A stretch of DNA of 64,000 nt from Ostreococcus lucimarinus (GCA_000092065.1 CP000598.1); one strand, 5' to 3'. Positions 2,303-64,000 are shown, numbered from the stretch's first letter. The notes: generated by a model not told the origin, from the sequence alone. Program-made: numbers and translations.

Positions 2303-4834
2303 TTAGGAAACCTTATCCGTGCCTTTTACGCTGAGCCCGGTCATGGACGGCTTCGTCGGCATGGTGAACGCGGTGTAGTCCGCCGCCGTGGGCACCGTGA
2401 TGCTCGTGTCGTACGACATCCCGGAGCACGCCGACGCATCGGCGGGAGCAAGCATTTCGACACCACTTTCGAGTTTCAAGACGTACCGGTCGCCAGTCGA
2501 TGGTTGTTTGAACGTGGTGCCATCGGGGATCAGGACATCCGGACGGCGATGGTAACCATTGTTGTCGTCGCACTCCTCGTTGCCATACTGGTCGACCTCG
2601 GGCGCCGCGCGCGAACCAGTCATCGGATTGAAGCAAATGAACGGCGCGTCGCCCAACCAACCGCCTTCGTAACGCACGTTGAGATTCACCCCGGAGTAGT
2701 CGGTACCGGATGGAGAGCGCAGCAACACGGCGTCCGTGGGTATCTTGCCTTGAAGCTGGAGAGGCGCATCCATGAACTTCTTTGACGCGGAGTCCGAAGG
2801 ATCTTCGAGCCACGCCATGCCCTCCCAATTGCTTGAGCTCCACTCGTAGTGCACATCCAATTTGTTGGGTTCCTCGCAAACGTCGGTAGTGGCGGTGCAA
2901 CTCAAAGTGTCGAGGTTCGCAGGTGTAGCTTCGAAGAGAACCATATGAACTTCTCCCGAGTCAAAGAATGAGTTGGTTGGGTCCATTACGACTTCAGCGC
3001 CGAGGGTGCCGGAAACGTCTTCCTTCAACGAGCCGGTATCTTTGTCGAAGACGTACTTTTTATAAGTGCTTCGAGCGTCGTTGTATCCGTTCGGCGAGCC
3101 GTAGAACTGGCTGTCGTGACTGCTCGCACTCGATAGCTTCGTCTGGTCGATACACCGCTCGCCGCACGTGAGTGCGAGGTGGCTGCTGAGCGACCCAGGG
3201 GGGACGGTTTGCGCGTCAGACACTTTGAAGTGCGTCAGGTTAAGCAAACTCGCAGAGCCTCGGCCGAAGATGCTTCCCCAGCAGCGTATGATTTGGTTGT
3301 CAATGTCAGCCATCGTGAGCGCACGCGGAGTCGTGATTGAGTTCGTGTTCAGCGATCCACCGTTCCAAGTTCGCTTCGACGACAACACGAGTGCGTTCGC
3401 GTCGGAGTCATACCTGAACTTGACCTCAACTTCTGCAGCGTTAGTGTCATCCCAGAACCAGCCTGTGATCGTCGCCCCTTGGTAGTCGCTTGCGCTTCGC
3501 ACCGTCGCCGTGAACTTGTACAACACCCCGCGTGAGACTTTGAGCCTCTTGTTCACGTTCAGTATCGGATCATCCCAATCGACAATTTCCTCTACTACGT
3601 TCCCGTCGGTGAACGCGGTTTGAGCGATAGTCTTCTCGGCGGTACTGAGCGCGGTGTCGGAAATGTAGTCGTAATCGGAAATGTAGAGATTGCCCGGATA
3701 GTGCAGATCAGCATTATACGTCTTGCCGTCGCTGCCTGTAGCCTGAAGATGCACGTAGCTTTGAAGGTTCACCTTCGCCCCGTTGCTGTCGTACGCGCCG
3801 TAGCGCTCACCGAAGAACGATCTGTTCTCGAGTTCATCGCAGAATGACTGCCCGTACGCCTTCGTCTTGACGAGCGTAGCGGTAGTCACCAATTGACCCG
3901 CTTGTGTCGAACCATTATCAAAGTCGATGGTCTGGAAAGAGGCCTTCGTGATGTCGTTTTCTGCGCGCGATTTAGCACCCGCGGTGAATGAATTGCTGCC
4001 TCGTGTCACCTCTTCCCACCACGTGACCCCGGTCGCCGTGCAATCCGAATCCGCGTCGGTGGTTTCGCACTCGCGACGAACCACACCTTTGATGCGTTGG
4101 GACGCGGTCGAGCCAGTCGGCGATTGGTACGTAAAGGTAAAGTTTTTCACCAAGATTTTGTCAGACTTGATGGCGACGTCATCGCGCTTGACGATCATTT
4201 CCGTGTCGATGTTCGGCATTTCTGGGGTATCGCTGAGGGCTACCCAGACGTTCGTCTTGAAATCACGGGTATCGCTCGCGTCGTCGATGTCTGGGCCCGT
4301 GGCGTTGACGACCCAACGGTACGTAACCTTACCCTTGATTCGGTCGCCGTCGCTGTTGTCACAGTGGAAAGGATCGATCTCAGCGATGTATGGGCCAGTG
4401 TTCAGGTTCGCCGTCCAGTTCACCGAGGCGACGTAGCAAAGAACCATGTTTGGTATCTGGAAAATTTCGGTACTTACAGCGTCGACGAACGTCTCCGCCG
4501 GCGGCGCCGTGGCGTAGTCGGACGTCGAAGAGAACGAAGACACTTCGAGAGGCGTCACCTCGACGAGCGAACGACCATCGATTCGAGACGAACCAGAAGA
4601 CGTCGTCGAAACACCCTCTGACGGGATCATGGTGACTTTACGCGGCGTCAACGCCGCCTTGAGCGCGTTCGTCTTCGCCGCGCCCGACAGCCCGCTGACG
4701 GTGGTCGGGGTCGGGGCCGGGGCCGGGGCCGGGGTCGCGTCGTCATCCCTGAGCCCGATGCCGAGGCCGGTGCCAAGGGCGACCACCACGGCGGCGACAC
4801 CAACGATCGCGATCGCAACGCCACGTCTCACCAT
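2303..4834 (-). CDS. large secreted or membrane-anchored Ser/Thr-rich glycoprotein, function unknown
   Basis: 843-aa uninterrupted ORF. The hydrophobic N-terminus 'AIAIVGVAAVVVALGTGLGIGL' is followed by an (AP)n/PT linker. There are many N-x-S/T sequons and scattered Cys. The codon usage is coherent. Confidence 0.6.
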   Translation of the reverse strand: MVRRGVAIAIVGVAAVVVALGTGLGIGLRDDDATPAPAPAPTPTTVSGLSGAAKTNALKAALTPRKVTMIPSEGVSTTSSGSSRIDGRSLVEVTPLEVSSFSSTSDYATAPPAETFVDAVSTEIFQIPNMVLCYVASVNWTANLNTGPYIAEIDPFHCDNSDGDRIKGKVTYRWVVNATGPDIDDASDTRDFKTNVWVALSDTPEMPNIDTEMIVKRDDVAIKSDKILVKNFTFTYQSPTGSTASQRIKGVVRRECETTDADSDCTATGVTWWEEVTRGSNSFTAGAKSRAENDITKASFQTIDFDNGSTQAGQLVTTATLVKTKAYGQSFCDELENRSFFGERYGAYDSNGAKVNLQSYVHLQATGSDGKTYNADLHYPGNLYISDYDYISDTALSTAEKTIAQTAFTDGNVVEEIVDWDDPILNVNKRLKVSRGVLYKFTATVRSASDYQGATITGWFWDDTNAAEVEVKFRYDSDANALVLSSKRTWNGGSLNTNSITTPRALTMADIDNQIIRCWGSIFGRGSASLLNLTHFKVSDAQTVPPGSLSSHLALTCGERCIDQTKLSSASSHDSQFYGSPNGYNDARSTYKKYVFDKDTGSLKEDVSGTLGAEVVMDPTNSFFDSGEVHMVLFEATPANLDTLSCTATTDVCEEPNKLDVHYEWSSSNWEGMAWLEDPSDSASKKFMDAPLQLQGKIPTDAVLLRSPSGTDYSGVNLNVRYEGGWLGDAPFICFNPMTGSRAAPEVDQYGNEECDDNNGYHRRPDVLIPDGTTFKQPSTGDRYVLKLESGVEMLAPADASACSGMSYDTSITVPTAADYTAFTMPTKPSMTGLSVKGTDKVS

Positions 4835-24393: not shown

Positions 24394-24567
24394 TGCGAGC
24401 TATACCTTATAAATTGTGATCAATCGGGCCTAGTGCGTCGATAAGTGATGATGATTACAAGGAGCTATCATTGATTAGTTCATTAATGAGTGTTAACTCG
24501 TCAATTAGTCATCCTAGGTTAACTAGGGGAAGCTATACTTCATATTTTACTCTTCAGATTTCTAACA
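24394..24567 (-). mobile_element. solo LTR of a copia-like retrotransposon (5'-TG...CA-3') flanked by a 5-bp target-site duplication GTGTC
   Basis: 174 bp, about 95% identical to the LTR at 55885..56059 (shared 'caatcgggcctagtgcgtcgataagtgatgatgattacaaggagctat...ttcagatttctaaca'). GTGTC is present at 24389-24393 and at 24568-24572. Confidence 0.6.
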
Positions 24568-40450: not shown

Positions 40451-40533
40451 CCCATCGAGTACTAATCAATGATAGCTACTTGTAATCATCATCACTTATT
40501 GACGCAGGCCCGATTGATCGCATAGTATTAGGT
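40451..40533 (+). mobile_element. truncated, degenerate LTR fragment of the copia-like family
   Basis: 'actaatcaatgatagctacttgtaatcatcatcacttattgacgcaggcccgattgatcgcatagtattaggtatagctcgca' matches the 3' half of the LTR at 55885..56059 in reverse orientation. Confidence 0.45.
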
Positions 40534-41006
40534 ATAGCTCGCATTTCGAAAATAATGTATGAGGGTAAAATAATGAATTTAATTAACGTCGACGTTTGTC
40601 GCGCCGTCGCGCGCCACTTCGCGCCGCGCGCGCGTCCGGGCGGCGCGGAGTCAACCGATGTTTCCGCGTATCGTGATATCCGACCGTTTAAGTTTGAATT
40701 CTGTGCGTGGGTGTTGACGGAACACGACCGTTGGAGCTCGATGGGCACGTTAACTTTTGGGCCAGATTCTGTCGCGTATGACGCACCCTCGCGCGCGCCG
40801 AAGCGCGTCTCCGACCGTGTCGACGGCACGGAAAGGTTGTAAGAAGGCTTCTCAGCGATCTTCAGCCTCGCTGGGAGGAGCAGAGGCAACGACGGCTCCC
40901 GCTTGCGACGACGAAGACTGGCGCGCTCAAGTGGCCAAAGATGCTCGTGAGGTTGCCGTTTCTTTGCTCGCGAACAAACGTCGCCGGGAGGTTTCTGTTT
41001 CTGATA

Positions 41007-47071: not shown

Positions 47072-48313
47072 CTAGACTGCGTTGGCGACTCCAAGGAGAC
47101 TGAGCGCGTGATCGAGAGAAGTACGAAAACGTTCAGGCGGTATCATAAAGTCGCGTTTCAGTTCGGTCAGACAGGCACTTTCAAAGCACTCCGCAATGGT
47201 CTTCGTAACGGCGTGCGTTTGATCGCCGAGAGCGTACGTGTGGAACAATCCGGCGTTCCGTGCGATTTTTGCGTAGAGCTCATAGTACCAAACCGTCGAA
47301 GGAAAGAGCTCAATGACTGCGCTTTCTCGTTGCATGAATATAACGTTCGTAAGATCGGCGCCATGCGATGAAATGAGCAAGTCTGTTTCTGACATGAGGG
47401 ACACTTGCTCCTTGAAAGAAAGCGTATCGAGCCGAACAGTTTTGTACCAAAGTCGACGCTCATCCAATATTTCTTGTAATTCGCCTACGTTAGTGACACG
47501 TCTCTTCTTTCTATCAATCAGTGTCACTCGCAAATCCGCTCTGTTTATTCGTTTCGGGTTGATTTTGAGATTGCCATACACTCGGTCTCGAAATAATTGA
47601 GCGTCATATGGGCCTTGAAGTAAACCTATCATAGTTCCAGCGACGACAACTCTTCTGGCACAAATAGGCGATGTCAACTCGTCACCATAAACGACCCTGA
47701 CGTCGCCAAAGATCTGCTGAGTCAAACTATCAATCCAACTTTGAGCGGGCGGCCGCTGTCTAAAAATTATCACGACAGAAGAGCTATCCGAATTCTCTAG
47801 CGTCCTGAGAGCGCTGTGAAAAAAGAACATGGCAGATTGCGCGAAATGAAAGGGATTTGCGCCGCGTTTGTCGTCTGGAGCGATCACGAACAGATTCGAC
47901 GTGTGGTTCTTATTGAGAGCGTGCGTGAAAATCACCGGGTCGACTTTTACGTCCACGTACGCCCTCAGTGGTAGCTGGTGAAACTTTGACATATCCACCG
48001 TGGGTAAGTTGGAAAGTCTACTGATTTCATGCCCGTCCGATTTGAGCGTCGTAAGCGCTGTCGAGACCAAAAGTCCACCACGTGTGACGCATACATCTTC
48101 TAACACGCAATACTCGTCGTAGTCGGGCGTCGTGAAGCAACTCGAATTAGTTCTCTGTGACGTCACGTACCTTTGAGATCTGAGCTGAGTAGACCCGTAG
48201 AAGAGCGCTGATGAGAGGAAAAACGCACGCATCATTCGTGTTCGCTCACGGCGTTTCACCGGCATCGCACTGTCCTTGACGTCGATATCTCGCTCTAGGG
48301 TGTGGAATCTCAC
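47072..48313 (-). CDS. glycosyltransferase family 61 (DUF563)-like
   Basis: 'SFKEQVSLMSETDLLISSHGADLTNVIFMQRESAVIELFP' matches the GT61/DUF563 signature (sF.EQv.l...tdvliGvHGAGLTn.lF..p...viEl.P). The N-terminus is hydrophobic. Confidence 0.7.
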   Translation of the reverse strand: MRFHTLERDIDVKDSAMPVKRRERTRMMRAFFLSSALFYGSTQLRSQRYVTSQRTNSSCFTTPDYDEYCVLEDVCVTRGGLLVSTALTTLKSDGHEISRLSNLPTVDMSKFHQLPLRAYVDVKVDPVIFTHALNKNHTSNLFVIAPDDKRGANPFHFAQSAMFFFHSALRTLENSDSSSVVIIFRQRPPAQSWIDSLTQQIFGDVRVVYGDELTSPICARRVVVAGTMIGLLQGPYDAQLFRDRVYGNLKINPKRINRADLRVTLIDRKKRRVTNVGELQEILDERRLWYKTVRLDTLSFKEQVSLMSETDLLISSHGADLTNVIFMQRESAVIELFPSTVWYYELYAKIARNAGLFHTYALGDQTHAVTKTIAECFESACLTELKRDFMIPPERFRTSLDHALSLLGVANAV

Positions 48314-48622: not shown

Positions 48623-49828
48623 ATGTCCACCGCAGCCATGAAAACCTCCGCACGTCGGCTCGGTTTGCGCGTGCTGTTGGCTTTTTGGTTGTTGAAGTTT
48701 GTATTGTCTTTGCAGTTCATAACACGCGGATGCGAGCGCTCGGTGAAGTATTTGAGCGAGATGTGGATGCGAGAAGATGCTTGGACGCACTGTCGGAACT
48801 GCTGCGGCGACGTGAGGGAACGAATGCTGAAGTTCAGTTCATTTGGCTTGGGTAAAGACGTCGCGTGTTTCACCATTCATCCGGAGGCGACTTCGCCGTC
48901 GTCGTACACCTTCGTCGCACGCAGGCGTGAACCGCTGAATCGTAGCTACTTTAAAAGTGCCCTGCGGTTTCTCCGAGACGTCGCTGTGGAACGGCGACAG
49001 AACCAAGGAGAACGAAGCGACGTGGCTCTACGACTCCTTTGGGTGATTGACGACGATGCCTCTATGCCGAGGGAGCTGAAACGGGAATTGAAATCCTTGA
49101 ACACTTTCATTCTGGCGCATTCTATCAATGTGGATTGTTTCACCGACGAATCAGTCGTGCTCGCGCCAAACTTCCACTTCATCAAGCGCGACGGGTTCAA
49201 ACCGTTGCTTCGGAATCTGCGTGAACGTGAGATTCCGTTTGATGAACGCAAATCCGACGTATTCTGGAGAGGCTCGACGTCTGGTATGTCAACAAAATGC
49301 GAAATAGAAGAACCCGCTCGCGTCGACGTGAACGAAAGGGTTACCGCGTGCGTTGAACTTCCGCGCGTGCGAGCGGTGCAATCATCCATAAATGTTCCTT
49401 GGCTCGACGTCGAGATCACGCGAAGGGTACAATCGTGTAAAGGACAAACAAATGTACGCATTAGCCCGCACGTATCGGAACAGCATTGGATCACGCACAA
49501 AGGTATCCTCGAAATCGATGGAAACGTCGACGCGTGGGGAAACCGTTGGCGCATGGAAAGCGGGAGCGTCCTGTTCCTCGTCAAGTCAAATTTCAAGCAC
49601 TATTACAGCGACAAGCTGGTAGATGGAGTACACTACATCGGAATATCTGGAGATTTGCACGATTTAGTGGAAAAAACGAAGATTGTGGCGAACACCGATG
49701 GCGAATCGCTAACGAAGTTGCGTGATATCACAGCAAATGCTCGCGCGTTGATGCAAGAATTTACGTACGAGCGCGTCGTCAAGGGCGTTTCCCATCGTCT
49801 GAATGAGCTAGCCTTAGGTATGGTATAG
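48623..49828 (+). CDS. glycosyltransferase family 90 (CAP10/POGLUT/KDELC-like)
   Basis: 'DVFWRGSTSG', 'KGILEIDGNVDAWGNRWRMESGSVLFLVKS', 'VHYIGISGDLHDLVEKTKIVANTDGESL' match the Glyco_transf_90 core (ffWRG......yKY..diDG...s.r......sgSvvlk......hY.P...d.sdL.ek). Confidence 0.75.
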   Translation: MSTAAMKTSARRLGLRVLLAFWLLKFVLSLQFITRGCERSVKYLSEMWMREDAWTHCRNCCGDVRERMLKFSSFGLGKDVACFTIHPEATSPSSYTFVARRREPLNRSYFKSALRFLRDVAVERRQNQGERSDVALRLLWVIDDDASMPRELKRELKSLNTFILAHSINVDCFTDESVVLAPNFHFIKRDGFKPLLRNLREREIPFDERKSDVFWRGSTSGMSTKCEIEEPARVDVNERVTACVELPRVRAVQSSINVPWLDVEITRRVQSCKGQTNVRISPHVSEQHWITHKGILEIDGNVDAWGNRWRMESGSVLFLVKSNFKHYYSDKLVDGVHYIGISGDLHDLVEKTKIVANTDGESLTKLRDITANARALMQEFTYERVVKGVSHRLNELALGMV

Positions 49829-53705: not shown

Positions 53706-54743
53706 CTACGAGTTTAGGGAATTTTCCACGCCCTCAATACCACCATCGAAGCGAATGAATGCGAATTCGACGCACATTTTGTGCAATAGTGAATACTTGA
53801 TATTCGGCTCTTTGTGGAAAATGTAAAAGTTTTCGTCGTGAAGGCGTCGGAAGAAACGTTTCGCCACCGGCTCGCGCAAAGGGTCGAGCGCGCCGCGGCC
53901 GAAAAGTTGATCGCCGACGATCAGAGAGAGCCACGATTGATGTACTTCTTTCAAGTTCGAGTCAATCGTGCCCGCGTGTATTTCCACGAGCATTTCATCG
54001 ACGCGCACGTCGGCGTCGATCCAGCTGCCGTAAGTGCTCCATTCGCAGCCTTCGCAGTCAATTTTTAATACGTCTATCGTCCTTCCTTTGTGACCGAGCG
54101 CGACGACGACGTCGGCTAAACTTTTCAAATCGCTCCCATCGGGTTCGCGCGCGCCTCCTAATCCCCATGGTTGAAAGTGGACACCGCACGGTTTGTTTCG
54201 CGGGTTCGACACCGTGTGATCGAACACGTGTATTTCGCACGCGCTCGACACGTCCCGCATGATCGCTTCTTCGAAACTAAAGTCATCGAAACTTCCGACG
54301 CTATATATCAAACCGTCCGCCCCCCGCGCGCGCAGACGGTTCGGGTCGCACAAACACTTCCCACCCTCGCCAGCTGGACCGACGCGCTCTTCGCGCGCGC
54401 ACGTCACGGCGGGCTCCACGTTGTCTTGGTACCAACCGTCGGCTCTCTGCGTACCTCCGCGCGAGACGGTGTCGAAGAGCGCGTAGCGCTTGAGCTTATC
54501 GGCGTTGATCGCGTTGATCGCGCGATCGAAGGCGGCGTCGACGTCTTTTGCGATCGGCGCCGTCGAACGCGTCGGCTTCGGTTGTGCGCACGAGTGCTGT
54601 TCTTCGACCCGAGCACGCACGGGTTTGGCGAGGTGATACCGTGTGAACAGGGTGAAACACGCCGCGAAAAGCAGCAACGCGCTGATTTCTCGCGCGCGCT
54701 TCGATCGTGCGAGGACGGAGCCGTTCGAAGCGAGACGAATCAT
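53706..54743 (-). CDS. FkbM-like methyltransferase, type II membrane topology
   Basis: The anchor is 'ALLLFAACFTLF'. 'LIYSVGSFDDFSFEEAI' and 'IDVLKIDCEGCEWSTY' match the FkbM LKIDvEG motif. Confidence 0.45.
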   Translation of the reverse strand: MIRLASNGSVLARSKRAREISALLLFAACFTLFTRYHLAKPVRARVEEQHSCAQPKPTRSTAPIAKDVDAAFDRAINAINADKLKRYALFDTVSRGGTQRADGWYQDNVEPAVTCAREERVGPAGEGGKCLCDPNRLRARGADGLIYSVGSFDDFSFEEAIMRDVSSACEIHVFDHTVSNPRNKPCGVHFQPWGLGGAREPDGSDLKSLADVVVALGHKGRTIDVLKIDCEGCEWSTYGSWIDADVRVDEMLVEIHAGTIDSNLKEVHQSWLSLIVGDQLFGRGALDPLREPVAKRFFRRLHDENFYIFHKEPNIKYSLLHKMCVEFAFIRFDGGIEGVENSLNS

Positions 54744-54900
54744 GAAACGAACGACGAATACTGCGGGAAGAGAAGTGAGGTGAGTGATTACGCACGTGAC
54801 GAGAATGATACACTATGATGCGATTTCGAGACTACATCACTACACGTTGAGCTAGAATCTACGTACGATCGATCGCGCCAAATGGTTTCCACCGACTTCT

Positions 54901-55779
54901 TCACGACGCATAAATGTCCCCTCCCCGCGACATTTCGCTGTAGTGCTTCGTCGCTCGAGGCAGCTTAAAGTGCAACAACACCTCCTCGTCTGTGCGCACG
55001 TCCGCGACGCGTCGACTCGCCGCGCTCAACGCGTCTCTATGTTGCACGCGCCAACGGAACTCGATCGAATCTCCATCCGCGATGCTTTCGTAGAGCAACG
55101 CGGGCCCGGTGTAGTACAACGAATGATAAAAGTGTTGTCGGTCGGCGACGTTCGCGGCGATTTTGTCCATCGCGCGCGCGAAAACATCCAACCCGGGGAC
55201 CGCCACCATGAACGCGTTCCACACTTGTTTCGGCCCGCCCGCGAGTTTGTACACGCGTCTGTCGTACACGAACAACGCGTCGTGGCGCATATCGTGGGTC
55301 AATTCGTCGAGAGACTTCACCAGTAAAATGTCATCGTCCATCCAAGCGCCGCCTTCGGTGTACAGAATGCAGTACCGCAACAAATCAGCCTTGAACGCGA
55401 GTGGTTTTAGTGCTCTGTACGCGCGTAAATATTTTTTGCAGTTCGTTTCTATATACTCGGCTCCGCCGTACACGTCGTACGTCTTCAACGTCCACGTCGG
55501 GTTGAGTCGCGTGGTGATTTTTAACGGGAACGACGAATCGTTCGGTAACGTCAGGGTGTGCAACTTGCGAGGTAAAGGCTTTGTGTCAGTCGTCGTTGTC
55601 CATAACACCGGTACTGGTACGTCGTTCCAATGACTTTGTAAACCTCGCCAAAATGCTTGAAGCAAAAGTATACTTGCTATGGTGACGAATAGTACGAACG
55701 CGAACGTTCGTGTAGTCTTGCGACGAATATAGCGTGAGACGATGGTAAACGACTCGTTCCAAATGCCTTCGCCTTTCAT
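54901..55779 (-). CDS. glycosyltransferase family 32 (Och1/alpha-1,6-mannosyltransferase-like, DxD)
   Basis: 'KADLLRYCILYTEGGAWMDDDILL' is the GT32 signature (kaDllRy.iLy.yGGiYlDtD). The anchor is 'FAFVLFVTIASILLL'. Confidence 0.75.
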   Translation of the reverse strand: MKGEGIWNESFTIVSRYIRRKTTRTFAFVLFVTIASILLLQAFWRGLQSHWNDVPVPVLWTTTTDTKPLPRKLHTLTLPNDSSFPLKITTRLNPTWTLKTYDVYGGAEYIETNCKKYLRAYRALKPLAFKADLLRYCILYTEGGAWMDDDILLVKSLDELTHDMRHDALFVYDRRVYKLAGGPKQVWNAFMVAVPGLDVFARAMDKIAANVADRQHFYHSLYYTGPALLYESIADGDSIEFRWRVQHRDALSAASRRVADVRTDEEVLLHFKLPRATKHYSEMSRGGDIYAS

Positions 55780-55884
55780 ATCTCGCGAGGAGAAATTTGT
55801 GACGAAGAAGCCCTCGTTCGCGCGAAACGTTTCGTTCAGAGTGTTGCGGAATCCGCCGGCTTGCCTTATTAAAGGCTCGTTACA

Positions 55885-58563
55885 TGCGAGCTATACCTTA
55901 TATGATTGTGAGCAATCGGGCCTAGTGCGTCGATAAGTGATGATGATTACAAGGAGCTATGATTGATTAGTTCATTAATGAGTGTTAACTCGTCAATTAG
56001 TCATCCTAGGTTAACTAGGGGAAGCTATACTTCATACTTTACTCTTCAGATTTCTAACACACCTCCTTAGCTTTCTCTAGTCTGAGGGCTTATCAATCAA
56101 TACCTTTGAAAGGTTGGATTTCCTCACTTTCGACCTTCTCGAGATATTCTTGAAATGTGTGCAGAGCGTCACTCTTCACCATACCTTCACTCAACCTCTG
56201 GTTGATGAAGTCTCGTATGTCCTTTGAAGATATATGACTTAACATTACGTTGAAGTGATTAGAACACTCGTGAACGTCTGTTGTACCTGAAAAGTTCTTC
56301 TTGTTCGGCAATATCTTTGTCAACATATCGGCTAGATTGTATGACGATCCGATGTTGAATGGCTGTATAATCCCTTCTCTGTGAGCATAATGTTGGAGCC
56401 AAGCGTATCTTATTTCCATATGCTTGTTTGACTTTGACGACATCGTCTCCATCGCTTGTCGAATGGCTGTCGTGTTGTCACAAAACAATGGTACCCTGGA
56501 AAGTTTGAACCCAAGTTCTCTAAGTAACAAGATTTGAAAGAATAAATCTTTCGCGGCTTCATACATTGCCATAAACTCTGCTTGCGCTGAACTCGTGGCT
56601 GGTATTCCTTGCAGTTTGCTCTTCCAATTGGTAGGGCCGCATGAAAAAGATATATACCCCGATGTGGATTTTCTTCCGCATCTATCTTTCGAATTTAAGG
56701 ATAACTTTTGGCCTGCCCAATCCGAGTCTGTAAATCCTGCAAGTCTCACTATACCATTGCATTCAGCACCGTTGTAGGTTAATGGAATATTGGGGTTCCT
56801 CTTGAGATATCCAACTGCTCTGCATAGAGCGCTAAATTGTTTATGCGTTGGGTTACTTGCTACTCTTCCAGCTAGGCTGCATACCACAGCAAGATCCGGG
56901 CGAGTAGCTGTATTGAACCAATTCAGACTTCCCAACACTTGTTGATATGTTGTCCGTTTCATCCTGTCTACTGCATCTGTGTCATCCTCCTTGGCGAGAA
57001 CAAACATATCTGATGGTAGTAACGGTGAATCGCGAGCATTGATGTCTTGCACTGGGCATTTTGCTAGGAATTGCGCAATCGAATATTCTTGGCTCAGTGT
57101 GTAGCAGTGCTTCTCTAATCTGTGCATATTAATGCCGTTATACACTTTGCACTGTTCAAATTGCGATACTTTGTAGGTGTCTGAAAACTCGGTGTGGAAA
57201 CGTTCAACTTTTTCATTGTCCTGAGCCAATATTAGGAGATCATCCACCAAGACTGAAATGATCAGAAATGGTTTACCATGATTCATCTTAACAAATAAGC
57301 AGCTATCTTTGGCTAGTTGGGTTAAACCAATAGACCTTAGTGTCTTGGTTACATGAAGATACCAACATCTTCCAGCTTGCTTTGTTCCATATAGAGGTCT
57401 CTTTAATTTGTAGACTACTCCTTTCGGAAGCGGATGAGATCGTGGTGCTTTGATGAATATATCATCTAAAAGCTCTCCTTGAGTATAAGCTTGGGATACA
57501 TCTATCGTAAAGATGTCCCATCCTAAGATTGCCGCAATATTGATGAGTATCCTAAACGTGGTCATGGAAGCAACAGCACTAAATGTGTCGTGGTAGTCCT
57601 TCAACCAAACTTGGGTGAATCCTTGCACTACCAATCTAGACTTAAGGGAACCATCTGGTTTTACCTTATCTACCCATTTGGATCCACAAATATTTGCATC
57701 TCCGGCTTCATCAATACTGACCTCCATTAATGTGGTTTCGAGCAATCCATTGAGCTCTTTTGCTCTGCTCTCTGAGAAATCCACACTTGACTCATCAATA
57801 ATTTTACCGTATTCTTCGCCTTTTGCGACGGCTGTGGCTAGCACACTGTGTGCTGCCCTATTTGTCGAATCAGCGTTATTTAGCGCAGGATTCAATTTTA
57901 CCGTTTTATCGCCATAACTCCCGCCCTGAAGCTGGATATGCGAATACTTAGAGAACTTGGGTTCAAACTTTCCAGGGTACCATTGTTTTGTGACAACACG
58001 ACAGCCATTCGACAAGCGATGGAGACGATGTCGTCAAAGTCAAACAAGCATATGGAAATAAGATACGCTTGGCTCCAACATTATGCTCACAGAGAAGGGA
58101 TTATACAGCCATTCAACATCGGATCGTCATACAATCTAGCCGATATGTTGACAAAGATATTGCCGAACAAGAAGAACTTTTCAGGTACAACAGACGTTCA
58201 CGAGTGTTCTAATCACTTCAACGTAATGTTAAGTCATATATCTTCAAAGGACATACGAGACTTCATCAACCAGAGGTTGAGTGAAGGTATGGTGAAGAGT
58301 GACGCTCTGCACACATTTCAAGAATATCTCGAGAAGGTCGAAAGTGAGGAAATCCAACCTTTCAAAGGTATTGATTGATAAGCCCTCAGACTAGAGAAAG
58401 CTAAGGAGGTGTGTTAGAAATCTGAAGAGTAAAGTATGAAGTATAGCTTCCCCTAGTTAACCTAGGATGACTAATTGACGAGTTAACACTCATTAATGAA
58501 CTAATCAATCATAGCTCCTTGTAATCATCATCACTTATCGACGCACTAGGCCCGATTGCTCAC
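55885..58563. mobile_element. truncated Ty1/copia retrotransposon rearranged into a palindrome: the RT core is flanked by roughly 640-bp inverted copies of its own 3' end (RNase H C-terminus + PPT + LTR)
   Basis: Arm A, 55885..56526, is the reverse complement of arm B, 57948..58563. The arm B ORF 57938..58378 encodes the same 146 aa as the C-terminus of the minus-strand pol ORF. The LTR TGTTAG...GCTCGCA sits at 55885..56059, with the PPT-like 'gctaaggaggtg' next to it. Confidence 0.8.
56093..58015 (-). CDS. copia-type pol fragment (reverse transcriptase + RNase H). gag, PR and IN are absent
   Basis: 'YVDDLLILAQDNEKVE' is RT motif C (the YVDD box). 'ATSSAQAEFMAMYEAAKDLFFQILLLRELG...CDNTTAIRQA' is the copia RNase H. 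The first roughly 25 codons of the ORF are the antisense of arm B and are not genuine. Confidence 0.8.
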   Translation of the reverse strand: MSNGCRVVTKQWYPGKFEPKFSKYSHIQLQGGSYGDKTVKLNPALNNADSTNRAAHSVLATAVAKGEEYGKIIDESSVDFSESRAKELNGLLETTLMEVSIDEAGDANICGSKWVDKVKPDGSLKSRLVVQGFTQVWLKDYHDTFSAVASMTTFRILINIAAILGWDIFTIDVSQAYTQGELLDDIFIKAPRSHPLPKGVVYKLKRPLYGTKQAGRCWYLHVTKTLRSIGLTQLAKDSCLFVKMNHGKPFLIISVLVDDLLILAQDNEKVERFHTEFSDTYKVSQFEQCKVYNGINMHRLEKHCYTLSQEYSIAQFLAKCPVQDINARDSPLLPSDMFVLAKEDDTDAVDRMKRTTYQQVLGSLNWFNTATRPDLAVVCSLAGRVASNPTHKQFSALCRAVGYLKRNPNIPLTYNGAECNGIVRLAGFTDSDWAGQKLSLNSKDRCGRKSTSGYISFSCGPTNWKSKLQGIPATSSAQAEFMAMYEAAKDLFFQILLLRELGFKLSRVPLFCDNTTAIRQAMETMSSKSNKHMEIRYAWLQHYAHREGIIQPFNIGSSYNLADMLTKILPNKKNFSGTTDVHECSNHFNVMLSHISSKDIRDFINQRLSEGMVKSDALHTFQEYLEKVESEEIQPFKGID

Positions 58564-58798
58564 CTTAGTCGGCTTAAGTATTATTCATATTTTCGGCTAT
58601 CTCTTCGTCGGCCTAACAGCGAAATTTCCCTCTTTTGCACGTCCGGTTCGCCCAGCTCAGCCGCTTAACGAGTTCATTTCAACTTGAAATTTTCAAGGTA
58701 AAAAAGGCAACCTAAACGCTGTACTCAAGGTCCAACCTTAGTGTGCACCTAGACGTGTACCCACCGGTTCTCCTCCCTTCATCTCTTCCTCGCCGTTT

Positions 58799-60196
58799 TT
58801 GAAGTGTCACGCGCCGTCACTTAAGACGGCGATGCCCCGCCAGTTCCGTCTTCCGCCTCGCTCTGAAAGTTTGCTATTTAGTAGTGACTGTGCAAGAGGG
58901 GCACATGCCACAAGCCACGGTGGTAGACGAGGGGTGGGCCGACATAGACAAAATCACTGCGTAGTCCTCGCGTGGCGTCTTCTAACTCTCACTTGCGCGA
59001 TTTCCGTGTGTGCTTTGTTGGTCGCTCGCGGCCTGGAAAACATTCGTTTGTACCGTGCTGGGAACTTTGTTAGCTCTTTGGCACACGTATTGGACAGGGC
59101 AGTCGGTGTGGAGAAACTCGAGGAACTTCAGAAAGTGTGCACGCGGAGTACGGCGATAGAGGAGACATACCTGGTGACTGGCGCAGCTGGTTTTATCGGA
59201 AGTTACGTCGCACGAGCGCTCAACGAGCGTCGTGTACGAGTCGTTGGTTTAGATAACATCAACGGCTACTACCCGAGGGCTTTGAAGAGAAATCGGATTT
59301 CAAAGCTCGCAGAGGTTGGCGTGCACGTGGTGGAGGCGGACCTCAATGACTCTTTGACACTCAGGGGGATTTTAGATACGTGTAGAGTGACGACAATCGT
59401 ACACTTGGCAGCACAAGCGGGCGTGAGATATGCAGTGAAAAATCCAGGGTCGTATGTTCACTCAAATGTCGCAGGTTTTGTTTCACTGCTCGAAGAAGTA
59501 GTGAAGACAAGTCCTATACCAAGAGTGATCTTTGCCTCGTCGTCGAGTGTATATGGGTTGAACACAAAGCTTCCGTTTAGCGAATCGGATGTAACTGATT
59601 CGCCAGCGTCACTATACGCCGCAACCAAAAAAGCGAATGAACTCTTGGCGCGCACATACAATCATATTCATGGTGTTGCATTGACGGCGCTGCGCTTTTT
59701 CACAGTCTATGGGCCGCACGGTAGACCTGATATGGCGTACTACTCGTTCGCGAATAATATCAGGGCAGGGCAACTTGTGAATATATTTAGAAGTGCCGAT
59801 GGCAGTGAACTTGCACGTGACTTTACATACATAGATGATATTGTTCGTGGTATCATTGCAGCATGCGATACAAGCGAGGCTAGTGGGAAGAAAGCAGATG
59901 GTTCGAACCCACCTTTTAGGGTATATAATCTTGGCAACACGCATCCGGTGACGGTGAGCGACTTCGTCTCGAAACTTGAACACGCCCTTGGCATGGTGGC
60001 CAAGCGCAACTACTTGCCCATGCCCAAGACTGGGGATGTCCCTTACACACATGCCAACATCAGTGCTGCTGAACGTGACTTGTCGTACAAACCCAGAGTT
60101 GATCTTGATACTGGTCTTCAATATTTCGCGGAATGGTACTTAGGTTACTATGATAGTGGCGCGAACAGTGAGGACTTCAAGTACATACCACTGTGA
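58799..60196 (+). CDS. UDP-glucuronate 4-epimerase (GAE-type, membrane-anchored)
   Basis: 'YLVTGAAGFIGSYVA' is the GxxGxxG. 'YAATKKANE' is the YxxxK pair. 'FFTVYGPHGRPDMAYYSFANNI' matches the GAE signature FFTVYGPWGRPDMAYFFFT. The N-terminal TM is 'VVLAWRLLTLTCAISVCALLV'. Confidence 0.8.
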   Translation: MKCHAPSLKTAMPRQFRLPPRSESLLFSSDCARGAHATSHGGRRGVGRHRQNHCVVLAWRLLTLTCAISVCALLVARGLENIRLYRAGNFVSSLAHVLDRAVGVEKLEELQKVCTRSTAIEETYLVTGAAGFIGSYVARALNERRVRVVGLDNINGYYPRALKRNRISKLAEVGVHVVEADLNDSLTLRGILDTCRVTTIVHLAAQAGVRYAVKNPGSYVHSNVAGFVSLLEEVVKTSPIPRVIFASSSSVYGLNTKLPFSESDVTDSPASLYAATKKANELLARTYNHIHGVALTALRFFTVYGPHGRPDMAYYSFANNIRAGQLVNIFRSADGSELARDFTYIDDIVRGIIAACDTSEASGKKADGSNPPFRVYNLGNTHPVTVSDFVSKLEHALGMVAKRNYLPMPKTGDVPYTHANISAAERDLSYKPRVDLDTGLQYFAEWYLGYYDSGANSEDFKYIPL

Positions 60197-60259
60197 TGCA
60201 TCTGATCTGAAGAACCGACCACGAGATTTGGAGATGAACGCTTTAGCTTCCAATAAAAT

Positions 60260-61267
60260 CTAAAAGCATGACATGTCTCGCTGCCCAGATACATCGCACT
60301 CCTGTTGAAAGTATTTCTCCCAAAGCTCTTTGTGAGGTGTGTATCGACACCAAGGTTTCGACTGACCTGACCAATGGAGAACTCTCGCTTCATTCAGTAC
60401 CGACGCTCTAAGCCCTTTTTTGTAGCCGACTCCATCAACATTCCAATGCGATGGAATTGACTCGAAGGAATCGCCAAACACTAGCAACAAGGGAGGCTGA
60501 CTTCCATGGCTATATAATTTCGACACTGAGTTCATCTTCAACCAAGTCTCTACAGTTGAAGTAATTCTCTTACGCCGCCAGCTTTCAAGGTCGATTAGGA
60601 GTACCCCGGCATTGAAAGAATGCATTTTTTCACGAAGACCTGACGATTTTACCGCCGCATTTGAGAAATTGAGCAGACTACCGAGGGGGACACTTCGCTT
60701 CACAGCAGCAATGACAGATGTTGAAGACGAACGTAAATTTGCGTCATGTAACCTGCATATGTCACCTTTGACAATAATGTCAGTATCCAGATAGACTACT
60801 TTCTGGACGTCTGATAATATTTCTGCAAAGTAGAAGCGGGCATAGTTGAAAGCGTTTTGCAGCCTCCACTCTTTTCTGCTGTGTACAGTTATATTAGCTC
60901 GAATCATATCTTTGGAAAATTCGTGTAGTTCCCAGATGAAGGGTATTGCTCGGCTGTAGCAATTCAATTGCACACTAGCATCAGTGAGAGCATCGCGTGC
61001 AGTGAAGATGTGAAACCGTATCCGATGAGGTGACGCGGTGGCCGAAAGCACTGAACTGATCACAGGCCCTAACGTAAATAACTGAGTAGGATCGCAGGCA
61101 AATGCTATGTGAACCAGGGACTGAGCGTTCGGTATCTTTCTCCGAGGAAACACACGTATTAGAACGAACACGAAAAGCAAAATTCGACATATCGTGATGC
61201 TCGTGCGTGCGACTCTCACCGTATTGTTGAACCTAATAGAGGGGCGCAACATGTATGACAGTTTCAC
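60260..61267 (-). CDS. glycosyltransferase family 8, GATL/GAUT-like (putative galacturonosyltransferase)
   Basis: 'NYARFYFAEILSDVQKVVYLDTDIIVKGDI' is the DxD motif. 'FNAGVLLIDLESWRR' and 'ARVLHWSGQSKPW' match the plant GATL/GAUT GT8 core. The anchor is 'ICRILLFVFVLI'. Confidence 0.8.
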   Translation of the reverse strand: MKLSYMLRPSIRFNNTVRVARTSITICRILLFVFVLIRVFPRRKIPNAQSLVHIAFACDPTQLFTLGPVISSVLSATASPHRIRFHIFTARDALTDASVQLNCYSRAIPFIWELHEFSKDMIRANITVHSRKEWRLQNAFNYARFYFAEILSDVQKVVYLDTDIIVKGDICRLHDANLRSSSTSVIAAVKRSVPLGSLLNFSNAAVKSSGLREKMHSFNAGVLLIDLESWRRKRITSTVETWLKMNSVSKLYSHGSQPPLLLVFGDSFESIPSHWNVDGVGYKKGLRASVLNEARVLHWSGQSKPWCRYTPHKELWEKYFQQECDVSGQRDMSCF

Positions 61268-62204
61268 GTCAGGTTTGACGTTTCAAGTCGTCCACTGCTG
61301 TAGCCGAACCATGCTGAGCTCAAGTCCACGAGCGTGGCCGAATCTCGCCTGAACGTAGTTTCGCTTTAGATGTCTTTCCAAACACTGCTTTACTAGAAGC
61401 CTTCGACACCGTCAGATTCTGCGGTCGATGTAGTAGAAGATCGGAGCGAACAAATAGAAAAGAAAGGGCAATATAAGAGGGTGCGCAACATTCAGTTCAT
61501 TGAATTCATTCAATTGAACCAATCAATTGACCTTTCAACGTTTTGTCTCTCACCTCGGATCCACCTGGATCTGACGTCGTGAACAGATCGTTCGGATTCT
61601 CGTGGGTGTCGGCTTCGAAGGGCATGAACCCTATCGATAGTGCGCCACCCCGAGCTGTGTTGTACCTCATGTATGTTAGATTTCTCAGTTTACGCTCGGC
61701 GGCATAGCGTCATACCGTTCTTTATAGAGCCACTTGTAGATTTAATGTTGTCTGTCCCTTACAATGATGTACACCCTGAGCATGTTGAATGTGCCAGATA
61801 GGGTCAATCACATCGCTCAAGAAGCTAGTACAGAACGTTGATCATGATGAGCCGGAAGTATATTTTTCTGGTGAAGTGATATCACTGGGCAGTATCACTG
61901 GCGGCAAGCACAGTGCTGAATGGTCAGTACCCTTCGGAGAAACTCTAGATATATATTTTAATTCGCGATTCTAACGTTGCCGTGGGAAGTCTTGAATTTT
62001 CAGTCTCTATACCGCTCGCATCGATCCAGGAGCGTTTATGGCGGTTGTAAATGTGCCACTTTCTGGTGGTCTTGTCAACAAGGATCCATGTTTGGCTGCA
62101 AAACCCAAGCACAGTCACTGTCCGATCACCGTCCGATATCCCATCTAGCGTCTGGTATCCTCCTTTGACAAGCGCAGAAACGTTTCTCGTAGACCGTTGT
62201 CTAT

Positions 62205-62621
62205 TTATGAAGCCATTTCCATGGCGACTGACAGCATGACAAATCTGGAGTACTGGCTTTTAAGTCCATTCATGGGCATAAACACCAACAGCTCGCCGAG
62301 TGGAATTTTATAAGGCACGGTCATCCAAAACGGTTTATCTTCAGCCTGCATGTATCTCAAGCCCACACGTATACCATCAGAGTTTGCTTTCGGACCGACG
62401 TCGCGCAGCAGCTCTCTCGCCCACGTTGACAGATCGAAGCGTCTACTATCCGTGACTTGGTTTGTGAACGTTTGAGAGTCGACTCGAACCCGTCGATCGC
62501 TTTGAGCAGCTCGTGCGTACTCTCGCACCACCAGCAACGCGCTCACGACGGTGAAAATCTTAGCAGCGGCAATATATTTTCGAGTTGCGCACATTTTCTG
62601 GGCTGCTGTGACGAGTGACAT
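62205..62621 (-). CDS. hypothetical secreted or membrane protein (possibly the first exon of a longer gene)
   Basis: A 138-aa ORF with the signal-anchor-like 'IAAAKIFTVVSALLVV'. No family recognised. Confidence 0.25.
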   Translation of the reverse strand: MSLVTAAQKMCATRKYIAAAKIFTVVSALLVVREYARAAQSDRRVRVDSQTFTNQVTDSRRFDLSTWARELLRDVGPKANSDGIRVGLRYMQAEDKPFWMTVPYKIPLGELLVFMPMNGLKSQYSRFVMLSVAMEMAS

Positions 62622-62640
62622 CAGAATCTACAGGCGAAGC

Positions 62641-62700
62641 TCGCACCGTCTAAGTGCGTCGATAAGTGATGTCGATTACGAGTATGAGGGATAATGACTC
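62641..62700 (-). mobile_element. diverged LTR-related fragment
   Basis: 'ctaagtgcgtcgataagtgatgtcgattacgag' is similar to the 'ctagtgcgtcgataagtgatgatgattacaagg' of the copia-family LTR. Confidence 0.3.
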
Positions 62701-63177
62701 ATGAGATGAACCCAATCCCGCATTACACTGGTGCTAATGTTAGATAATCTATGAGAAACCTTGGGTTTATGAGTCGCGATGGTTGCCGCGCGAGCTTGTC
62801 CGATGCTGACTCATACACGCTAAGTCTATATGTAGGTCTAGGTCGTGTAGTATAGACATAGGCGTTAGAACCACTATAATACGGGATTGGCTTCATTCAT
62901 GTGCTTATCTCTCATCACATGCCATGGGATTTTGACTCGTTCAGAGCAACATCAGTAGGGTTTCAGTGACCGTTCATGACTCAATAAATCGTTGACCAGT
63001 CATAACTCGCCAACAGGGACTGTGCCGAGACGCCGAGCTCCCTGCGTCGCCATCGCGGCAGACGTCGCCTCCCCGCGCGACGACGGCGGGGGGGGGACGG
63101 CGCCAACGCGGCGCGGGACGCCGTCGCTGCGACGTGAGAGTCGCGACGACTCGTCAAACCCGGCCGCGACGTGATAT

Positions 63178-63837
63178 ATGCAGCCGGAAGATGCCGGGGA
63201 AGGGGTGACGGTGCCCTCCCAGGTTGGCGATGACGCGCTCGGAATCGTCCCCGTCGACGAGTACGAGACGGTGTTTTCGTTTCCAACCGTCGGAAAGGAC
63301 TCTGAGCTGTGTGTTACGCGATGTCACGGGTTCTGGCTGACATTTTACGTGGACGATACTCGCTCTGTCAGTGGCCAAGGCCCGCGAGCGAACAAAACCA
63401 AGTACGCCAGGAGCATGCGAGCTTTCAAGGTGCGAGCTTCCAAGCGCGATCCGCCGAAGTTTTTCGTATCGACACCGCCTGCGGGATTGTTCTCACATCG
63501 AGATATCGTTTGGCAATGTGATGTTCAGTGGCCTTACGAGAAAAGCGCGAGTAATTGGCTGCACGCCGTGATCCCGGCGGAGAGGTTGCTAGATTTCCGA
63601 CGCGGCGTGCAGTGCGACGCCGCCACAGAGTTCCGCGTTTATTCTAGATACAAGAAAGGGAGGGGAACAAACAGCGTGGGGTCATTATACACGAATATAA
63701 CCATCTGGCATTGCTTTTGTGGTCCTGAAGACCATTCGGTTGATGCCAAGGAAAAGTTTGCCAAGCTCTGCAGCGGGAAGGCGAAGCGCATCTCGAGAAA
63801 GGTGGGCTGTCAATGTCGTTTAGGGTTTAGGGTTTAG
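63178..63837 (+). CDS. hypothetical protein, 3'-truncated by the telomere (the in-frame stop is supplied by the telomeric repeats)
   Basis: A 219-aa ORF of unknown family. The frame reads into (TTTAGGG)n as ...LGFRV* with no native stop codon or 3' UTR. Confidence 0.35.
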   Translation: MQPEDAGEGVTVPSQVGDDALGIVPVDEYETVFSFPTVGKDSELCVTRCHGFWLTFYVDDTRSVSGQGPRANKTKYARSMRAFKVRASKRDPPKFFVSTPPAGLFSHRDIVWQCDVQWPYEKSASNWLHAVIPAERLLDFRRGVQCDAATEFRVYSRYKKGRGTNSVGSLYTNITIWHCFCGPEDHSVDAKEKFAKLCSGKAKRISRKVGCQCRLGFRV

Positions 63838-64000
63838 GGTTTAGGGTTTAGGGTTTAGGGTTTAGGGTTTAGGGTTTAGGGTTTAGGGTTTAGGGTTTAG
63901 GGTTTAGGGTTTAGGGTTTAGGGTTTAGGGTTTAGGGTTTAGGGTTTAGGGTTTAGGGTTTAGGGTTTAGGGTTTAGGGTTTAGGGTTTAGGGTTTAGGG
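63819..64000 (+). repeat. telomere: about 26 x TTTAGGG (plant/green-algal type), G-rich strand running 5'->3' to the window end
   Basis: Perfect tandem heptamers from 63819 to the end of the window. Confidence 0.95.

Follow-up and report, generated by a model that had tools for sequence, protein, structure and literature searches.

A transposon fragment joined directly to telomere repeats at the right end of the Ostreococcus lucimarinus small outlier chromosome, and its probable duplication at the opposite end

How does an open reading frame (ORF) come to run into a telomere? The question is raised by the last gene in a stretch of 64,000 nucleotides of Ostreococcus lucimarinus CCE9901 DNA, hereafter the window, which covers chromosome 18, the small outlier chromosome (SOC), up to its right end. 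In the Mamiellales the SOC is hypervariable and rich in glycosyltransferases, and changes size as cells gain resistance to prasinoviruses. Chromosome 18 is a 149-kb SOC of 53% GC with many sugar-metabolism and methylation genes (PMC3491373). The exact 219-aa product of the ORF is the hypothetical protein OSTLU_28418, found on the 149,386-bp chromosome 18 record. A first-pass annotation of the window had proposed that a broken chromosome end was healed here by telomerase, next to a glycosylation island. The island itself is readily recognised from its GT8, NAD-dependent epimerase and GT32-type genes. The coordinates of these and of the other features discussed below are collected in Table 1.

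Table 1. Features of the right end of chromosome 18, in window coordinates
Feature	Position	Strand	Basis or remark
Telomere array, (TTTAGGG)x26	63819..64000	+	repeat scan, TRF
Transposon-telomere junction	63818..63819	+	alignment with intact copies L004, L007, L010, L016, L018-L021, L024, L026
219-aa ORF, OSTLU_28418, ABP00629.1	63178..63837	+	residues 1-214 are a transposase N-terminus; accession order checked
5' 892 bp of a MULE of an Ulp1-protease-carrying family	62927..63818	+	TIRs and domains of complete copies
Left TIR of the element	about 62927-62984	+	TIRs of complete copies
9-bp TSD, proximal copy	62918..62926	+	CATGCCATG; other strand CATGGCATG
Segment S, terminal 1.52-kb block	62299..63818		inferred at both chromosome 18 ends with the telomere junction
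Internal breakpoint, probable repair junction of the right end	62298..62299		similarity to the intact methyltransferase-transposon arrangement stops
Truncated methyltransferase, ABP00674.1, 138 aa	62205..62621	-	first 108 codons (62621 down to 62299) equal to those of ABP00596.1; accession order checked
Unique proximal context (epimerase and GT8), joined non-homologously to segment S	58535..62298		L028, gene annotation
GT8 glycosyltransferase	60260-61267	-	
NAD-dependent epimerase	58799-60196	+	
Copia-type reverse transcriptase	56093-58015	-	RVT_2, 149.9 bits
GT32-type transferase (ABP00670)	54901-55779	-	accession order checked
Methyltransf_22 (ABP00669)	53706-54743	-	accession order checked
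GT90 (ABP00625)	48623-49828	+	accession order checked
GT61	47072-48313	-	

The repeats at the end of the window have the properties of a chromosome terminus. All 26 head-to-tail copies of TTTAGGG are perfect (100% matches in TRF) and they continue up to the last base of the window. A 14-mer telomere scan of the 64 kb returned 25 overlapping matches, all of them within the terminal array, with 0 expected from 100 shuffles; no second telomere-like array occurs anywhere in the 64-kb window. Read 5' to 3', the G-rich strand points out of the window, as in a true right-hand telomere, and the POT1 protein of O. lucimarinus binds TTTAGGG-type DNA, GGGTTTAGGGT (PMC2794166). The array directly abuts ...GGCTGTCAATGTCG, whose last base is 63818 (the sequence before the junction is also given as ...CAATGTCG), and from 55 kb onward TRF detected neither a satellite nor a degenerate repeat ahead of the telomere. 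The description of the repeats as lying directly on the ORF with no intervening satellite was thus correct. A telomere-like heptamer, AGGGTTT, is also present at 62956-62962, within the terminal inverted repeat of the element described below, probably by chance.

The base at which the two sequences meet can be located precisely. G63818 is the last base common to the window and to intact copies of the same element; after it the intact copies continue with ATTCCAGTCC and the window with TTTAGGG. Only G63818 fits the repeat register, so that the overlap at the junction is 0-1 nt. In a Logan short-read assembly (SRR1179203), contig L006 is 100% identical to positions 62299-63846, junction included. 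By sequence, the form of the junction (direct, with at most 1 nt of overlap and with longer colinear alleles) is as expected for de novo telomere addition, and it suggests an involvement of telomerase. Searching JGI metagenome contigs for the exact junction sequence returned 0 matches, which is uninformative, as short-read assemblies rarely retain telomere junctions; the junction may be private to the strain or may have arisen in culture. The portions of the literature on the Ostreococcus SOC and telomeres and on de novo telomeres that were available to us contain no published account of this transposon-telomere junction.

The ORF has no stop codon of its own. Across the junction it reads CGT TTA GGG TTT AGG GTT TAG (R L G F R V and stop): the junction falls within codon 214 (CGT), and residues 215-219 together with the stop, the last six codons, are encoded by telomere repeats, in agreement with the earlier observation that the frame closes only inside the repeats. 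A search with the 214 non-telomeric residues recovered 20 relatives of 54-100% identity, and the longer of these run on past the junction (...RKVGCQCR|FQSCGFSEKFTFMPYEGG...VWHAKHEVVPSWPASSETKR...). A profile search of 1.84 billion representatives recovered two proteins of 1,420 aa with N-termini matching the ORF. Full-length relatives measure 1,410-1,420 aa, and the window ORF retains 214 of about 1,420 codons. The first-pass annotation had noted that the ORF lacks a stop codon and 3' UTR of its own and had suggested a comparison with intact homologues; none of these ends at the last residue of the ORF and all relatives extend beyond ...RKVGCQCR, as truncation requires.

The identity of the truncated protein emerged from its longer relatives. 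The two 1,420-aa proteins, a 1,349-aa ORF in contig L014 and a 1,410-aa ORF in contig L021 each contain a Peptidase_C48 and a MULE domain, both above threshold. The Peptidase_C48 (Ulp1) domain scores 73-77 bits in the long relatives (73.3 in L021), and the MULE transposase domain (PF10551) scores 33-37 bits in the long relatives and 35.7-37.5 bits in P0060, L014, L021 and P0067 (35.7 in L021), the Pfam gathering score for this domain being 27.6. Both domains are lost at the cut, as is a conserved segment, VRIRWPL...VWHAKHE, that follows a CxC...CxC motif. The 214-aa stump in the window has no Pfam match, and several partial copies have none or only sub-threshold ones; classification of the family worked only once longer copies had been found. 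The AlphaFold model of the N-terminal region, built from an 11-sequence alignment, is poor (mean pLDDT 46.6), and Foldseek recovered nothing at E <= 0.001 when this model was searched against the PDB. A match of the N-terminal region to a NAC domain (prob 0.41) was too weak and was dismissed as evidence. The usual N-terminus of MULE transposases is a WRKY-GCM1/FAR1-type zinc finger (PMC1702500), and the motifs WHCFCGP...KVGCQCRF...VWHAKHE suggest, as a motif-level guess, a WRKY/FAR1-type finger in the N-terminal region here. Judged by its sequence, the 219-aa "protein" is the annotation of a dead transposase fragment and not a functional gene. The earlier treatment of the ORF as a host gene is therefore not upheld: what reaches the telomere is a MULE/Ulp1 DNA transposon, of which the 5' 892 bp remain.

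The ends and the distribution of the element lead to the same classification. Complete copies are bounded by terminal inverted repeats (TIRs) of 59-68 nt, GGATTTTGACTCG...CGAGTCAAAATCC (59 nt at 98% in L011, 68 nt at 94% in L001). The window has the left TIR only: element nt 1-892 are kept and everything 3' of them is missing. For a MULE, a target site duplication (TSD) of 9 bp (8-11) is the criterion. The 9 bp CATGGCATG flank both ends of the element in L018, L019 and L020, and the L001 copy has a 9-bp TSD of its own, ACAAGTTGC; none is evident around the L011 copy. Copies occur in different flanks in L001, L009, L011, L012 and L017, and the family includes several internal deletions. From the TIRs, the 9-bp TSD, the MULE and C48 domains and the multiple copies together, the family is assigned by sequence to the Mutator-like (MULE) DNA transposons with an Ulp1 domain. 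Mutator-like elements carrying an Ulp1 (C48) protease domain are known in plants as the KI-MULE/CUMULE type. The element resembles these known Ulp1-bearing MULEs in its combination of MULE and C48 domains, its long TIRs, its 9-bp TSD, its multicopy state and its internal-deletion derivatives. It differs in its Cys/His-rich N-terminal region without a Pfam match, and that stump is all that the window retains. MULEs on Mamiellales outlier chromosomes have already been reported (bioRxiv 10.1101/2025.04.21.649811).

A deleted copy of the same MULE family was also found in a further SOC-like setting. In L001, a hoskyn contig of 118,892 bp that comes from a Great Barrier Reef sample, positions 1-20492 form a gene island resembling the SOC, and the deleted copy sits in the middle of it. 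The island has GT10, GT11, GT2/GT7, sulfotransferase and LicD genes, as well as PEP mutase and phosphonopyruvate-decarboxylase-like genes (phosphonate synthesis).

Environmental sequences preserve the allele from which the window copy was cut. At least 10 environmental contigs (L004, L007, L010, L016, L018-L021, L024 and L026) have the element at the same insertion site. They have in common the TSD and the unique flank proximal to the element, and are 99.5-99.7% identical to positions 62299-63818 (2-5 differences). All of them read through the breakpoint, ...CAATGTCG|ATTCCAGTCCTGTGG... (...GTCG|ATTCCAG...). In L021 the element at this insertion site is full-length and contains the 1,410-aa ORF. 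In L018 a 2.7-kb deletion derivative is followed by 7 kb of distal sequence, and the contig runs 8.4 kb farther (at least 15 kb). The sequence that follows the breakpoint in the intact alleles is absent from the window, and no intact element copy sharing the junction 30-mer was found in the SRR1179203 read set. A fragment with a single TIR cannot be produced by transposition, and the window copy must thus have been cut after insertion. Insertion of the element into a telomere was also considered and rejected, since no repeats lie on the proximal side of the element, which is moreover cut internally. Relative to the L018 haplotype, sequence comparison indicates that at least 15 kb is lost or moved. 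In the uncut arrangement about 0.56 kb separates the MULE from a methyltransferase gene downstream of it, and an intact methyltransferase is found next to the element in all environmental contigs.

In the window this methyltransferase is itself cut. Its intact form, ABP00596.1, is a 375-aa Methyltransf_21/FkbM protein; ABP00674 is identical to it over the first 108 residues and then turns into unrelated read-through, the remainder of the gene being absent from the window. Contig L007 encodes an intact protein identical to ABP00596.1; the latter is on the 149,386-bp chromosome 18 record but outside the window. The similarity between the window and all environmental contigs ends exactly at 62298/62299, inside the methyltransferase gene, and provides a discrete boundary where similarity to a putative donor stops. 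The boundary is covered in independent reads by contig L028, which is 100% identical to positions 58535-62328; since L028 spans 62298/62299, the junction at the right end is real and not a mis-join. The stretch common to L028 and L006 (62299-63846) measures exactly 30 nt, which equals k-1 in a de Bruijn graph with k=31 and marks a branch of the graph at 62299. From 62299 into the telomere the unitig path is unbranched, including at 63818. The structure of the graph indicates that the block 62299-63818 has two left contexts and continues unbranched into a telomere in both, with the reservation that bubble popping in the Logan assembly could mask small differences between the two copies of the block.

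Where is the second copy? The 219-aa protein has two identical entries in GenBank, ABP00629.1 and ABP00630.1, each ending in the telomere-coded residues, and the window contains one copy only. The accession numbers follow strand and position, as checked on five genes of the window (Table 1): plus-strand genes are numbered by position (ABP00596 to ABP00629), followed by the minus-strand genes (ABP00630 to ABP00674). With this strand-ordered numbering, ABP00630 is the first minus-strand gene of the chromosome and ABP00596, the intact methyltransferase, is the first plus-strand gene. Being first on their strands, the two would lie at the far left end, divergently oriented as in the environmental contigs. 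The most likely order at the left end, working inward, is telomere, transposase stump and intact methyltransferase, a layout based on accession order, the identical proteins and unitig boundaries. Two identical proteins, an intact methyltransferase on the same chromosome and a branch at 62299 lead us to a terminal duplication: the last 1.52 kb (62299-63818) and the telomere junction are probably present at the other end of chromosome 18 as well. The intact methyltransferase gene at the other copy suggests that copying went from left to right.

Other gene pairs would link the two ends. The GT90/CAP10 protein ABP00625 matches ABP00632 over 396 aa with 100% identity; the latter is the third minus-strand gene and is placed at the left end by accession order. 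The Methyltransf_22 protein ABP00669 has 91% identity to ABP00598, which comes third on the plus strand. Taken with the 1.52-kb block, these pairs suggest that the SOC ends have in common an inverted duplication, mosaic in make-up and about 15 kb long. The locus also suggests that the two ends of chromosome 18 exchange sequence. A bolder reading, to which we give little credence, is that the SOC is bounded by this 15-kb or so mosaic duplication, with the outer 1.5 kb and its transposon-telomere junction kept identical by end-to-end copying, and with an original truncation triggered by DSB or gap-repair activity of the MULE. If it were true, MULE-induced breaks, telomerase healing and end copying would constitute an engine of the rapid SOC size changes that accompany virus resistance.

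We consider it probable that the left end of chromosome 18 was healed and was later copied to a right end that had broken at 62298. The ancestral arrangement, common in the sea, has the MULE about 0.56 kb upstream of the methyltransferase and at least 15 kb of chromosome beyond. In the CCE9901 lineage the chromosome would have broken or eroded inside the MULE, at element nt 892, and telomerase would have added TTTAGGG onto ...GTCG-3' with an overlap of at most one G, leaving a 214-codon stump that reads into the telomere. According to the annotation order and the structure of the assembly graph, this healed end, beside the intact methyltransferase, would be the left end of chromosome 18. The right arm would later have broken at the present 62298 and gained a copy of the last 1.52 kb of the left end with its telomere, by break-induced replication or telomere capture, or by some other non-homologous joining of the duplicated end. 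The copying would have cut the new methyltransferase copy at codon 108. Two independent telomere additions at one and the same nucleotide are very unlikely, and with the terminal block and the telomere probably on both ends, the telomere of the right end was most likely acquired by copying. The healed, truncated end proposed in the first-pass annotation survives in part: the truncation and the form of the junction stand, but the repair site at this end is probably 62298/62299 and not 63818.

The preferred reading has to be weighed against healing in place, in which the right end broke inside the ORF at 63818 and was capped there by telomerase. The form of the junction fits such a de novo addition, and the layout of the left end is a deduction from accession order, identical proteins and unitig boundaries. 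In-place healing would make the second protein record a redundant gene model, or the left end a copy of the right. A redundant model clashes with the strictly strand-ordered numbering. The methyltransferase, truncated here, is intact elsewhere on chromosome 18 and, next to the element, in every environmental contig, which makes the right end the derived, shorter copy. Nor does the junction appear to be unique in the genome, as the 219-aa product is annotated twice and the branch at 62299 provides two contexts for one terminal block. We therefore regard healing in place as unlikely. That the MULE itself caused the break, with excision or abortive gap repair leaving a free 3' end which telomerase extended, appears decidedly doubtful. 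The idea draws on the presence, at one insertion site, of a full-length copy (L021) and at least three internal-deletion derivatives (of the L018, L007 and L004 types) from different samples, the deletions running from about element nt 1024, 1036 and 1303 to about nt 3122, 3169 and 3334. Internal-deletion derivatives are a classic product of interrupted gap repair in cut-and-paste elements. The junction, at nt 892, is near the left breakpoints of these deletions (about nt 1024-1303), but the probes required element nt 250-900 or thereabouts, so that the clustering of breakpoints is biased by ascertainment; it was dropped as evidence. Moreover, a multicopy element can give rise to chimeras in metagenome assembly, no intact copy sharing the junction 30-mer occurs in the CCE9901-like read set, and an active element in CCE9901 is a supposition.

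Two further explanations concern the nature of the array and of the ORF. An interstitial telomere-like tract or an assembly artefact, with the chromosome continuing beyond, would be compatible with the fact that the window and the unitig both end inside the array. The array is nevertheless perfect, correctly oriented and the sole one in 64 kb, independent unitigs reproduce the 63818 and 62298/62299 junctions exactly, and the post-breakpoint sequence of the intact alleles is missing from the window, which makes a continuing chromosome very improbable. Alternatively, the 219-aa ORF might be complete and functional, the gene simply finishing where the telomere starts. In favour of this are its annotation as a protein (OSTLU_28418) and the presence of family relatives in transcript collections. 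Against this, the conserved segment and the C48 and MULE domains are cut off and telomere repeats encode the final 5-6 residues; every relative is longer than residue 214, and their continuation past this point rules a complete gene out for practical purposes.

The terminal block can be compared with two well-known outcomes of chromosome breakage. Chromosome healing by de novo telomere addition is known from terminal deletions in human, yeast, Plasmodium and plants. The present end is similar in having canonical repeats directly on non-telomeric sequence, with 0-1 nt of overlap and no subtelomeric repeat, and in the colinearity of the proximal sequence with longer alleles that run past the break. 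It differs in that the capped sequence is a transposon fragment and that the junction seems to occur twice per chromosome, and was probably copied to the right end and not made there. Telomere capture or break-induced replication and subtelomeric end duplication are familiar from yeast, human and Plasmodium subtelomeres, and reportedly from those of Chlamydomonas. As in telomere capture, a terminal block with its telomere would be common to two ends, and its boundary, 62298/62299, cuts a gene. Unlike in telomere capture, both ends would belong to one 149-kb chromosome, in inverted orientation, and no homology is visible on the proximal side.

Size variation by loss of ends has been described for the SOC in related species. 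Chromosome 19 of O. tauri ranges from 261 to 414 kb (PMC5498103), and the SOC of O. mediterraneus displays terminal deletions of 145-470 kb, with several telomere-to-telomere assemblies (PMC13390643). These chromosomes are likewise rich in glycosyltransferases, methyltransferases and transposons and change size by end loss. The suggestion that the locus bears on chromosome size variability is consistent with the plasticity documented for this class of chromosome (PMC5498103, PMC13390643). The parts available to us treat events on the kilobase scale and contain no telomere junction at the level of single nucleotides; the present locus adds a junction at nucleotide level, with the cut sequence and the ancestral allele, in a third species. 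It offers a base-pair view of a cut MULE, a methyltransferase cut 1.5 kb inward, an uncut natural allele and a re-capping of the chromosome. Three gene models are corrected: OSTLU_28418, in both of its records, and ABP00674 are artefacts of truncated sequence. The processes involved (healing, end duplication, SOC plasticity and MULEs on outlier chromosomes) are all known, and the locus is a new instance of them and no new kind of biology.

Proximal to the terminal block, the window includes an unusual repeat arrangement. Two inverted arms of 619 bp, 55908-56526 and 57945-58563, are 100% identical and overlap both ends of the copia-type ORF, a palindromic layout that is odd for a retroelement fragment. 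Related pieces of 150-175 bp are found at 24394-24567 and 40461-40544. Contig L028 breaks at the arm boundary, 58535, which indicates that the 619-bp repeat is real.

The methyltransferase locus is highly polymorphic in natural populations. Five environmental haplotypes (L007, L016, L019, L024 and L026) are colinear with the window over the GT32 gene, pieces of spacer, the methyltransferase and the MULE, and proximal to 62299 (positions 54115-57702) they are just 88-93% identical to it. The epimerase and GT8 segment (4.6 kb, 57703-62298) is missing from all five, and this cassette was seen only in the CCE9901-like read set. Three other contigs, L022, L025 and L027, represent alleles of the methyltransferase locus without the MULE: their similarity to the window stops at about 62675, and their upstream neighbour is a second Methyltransf_21 paralogue instead of the transposon.
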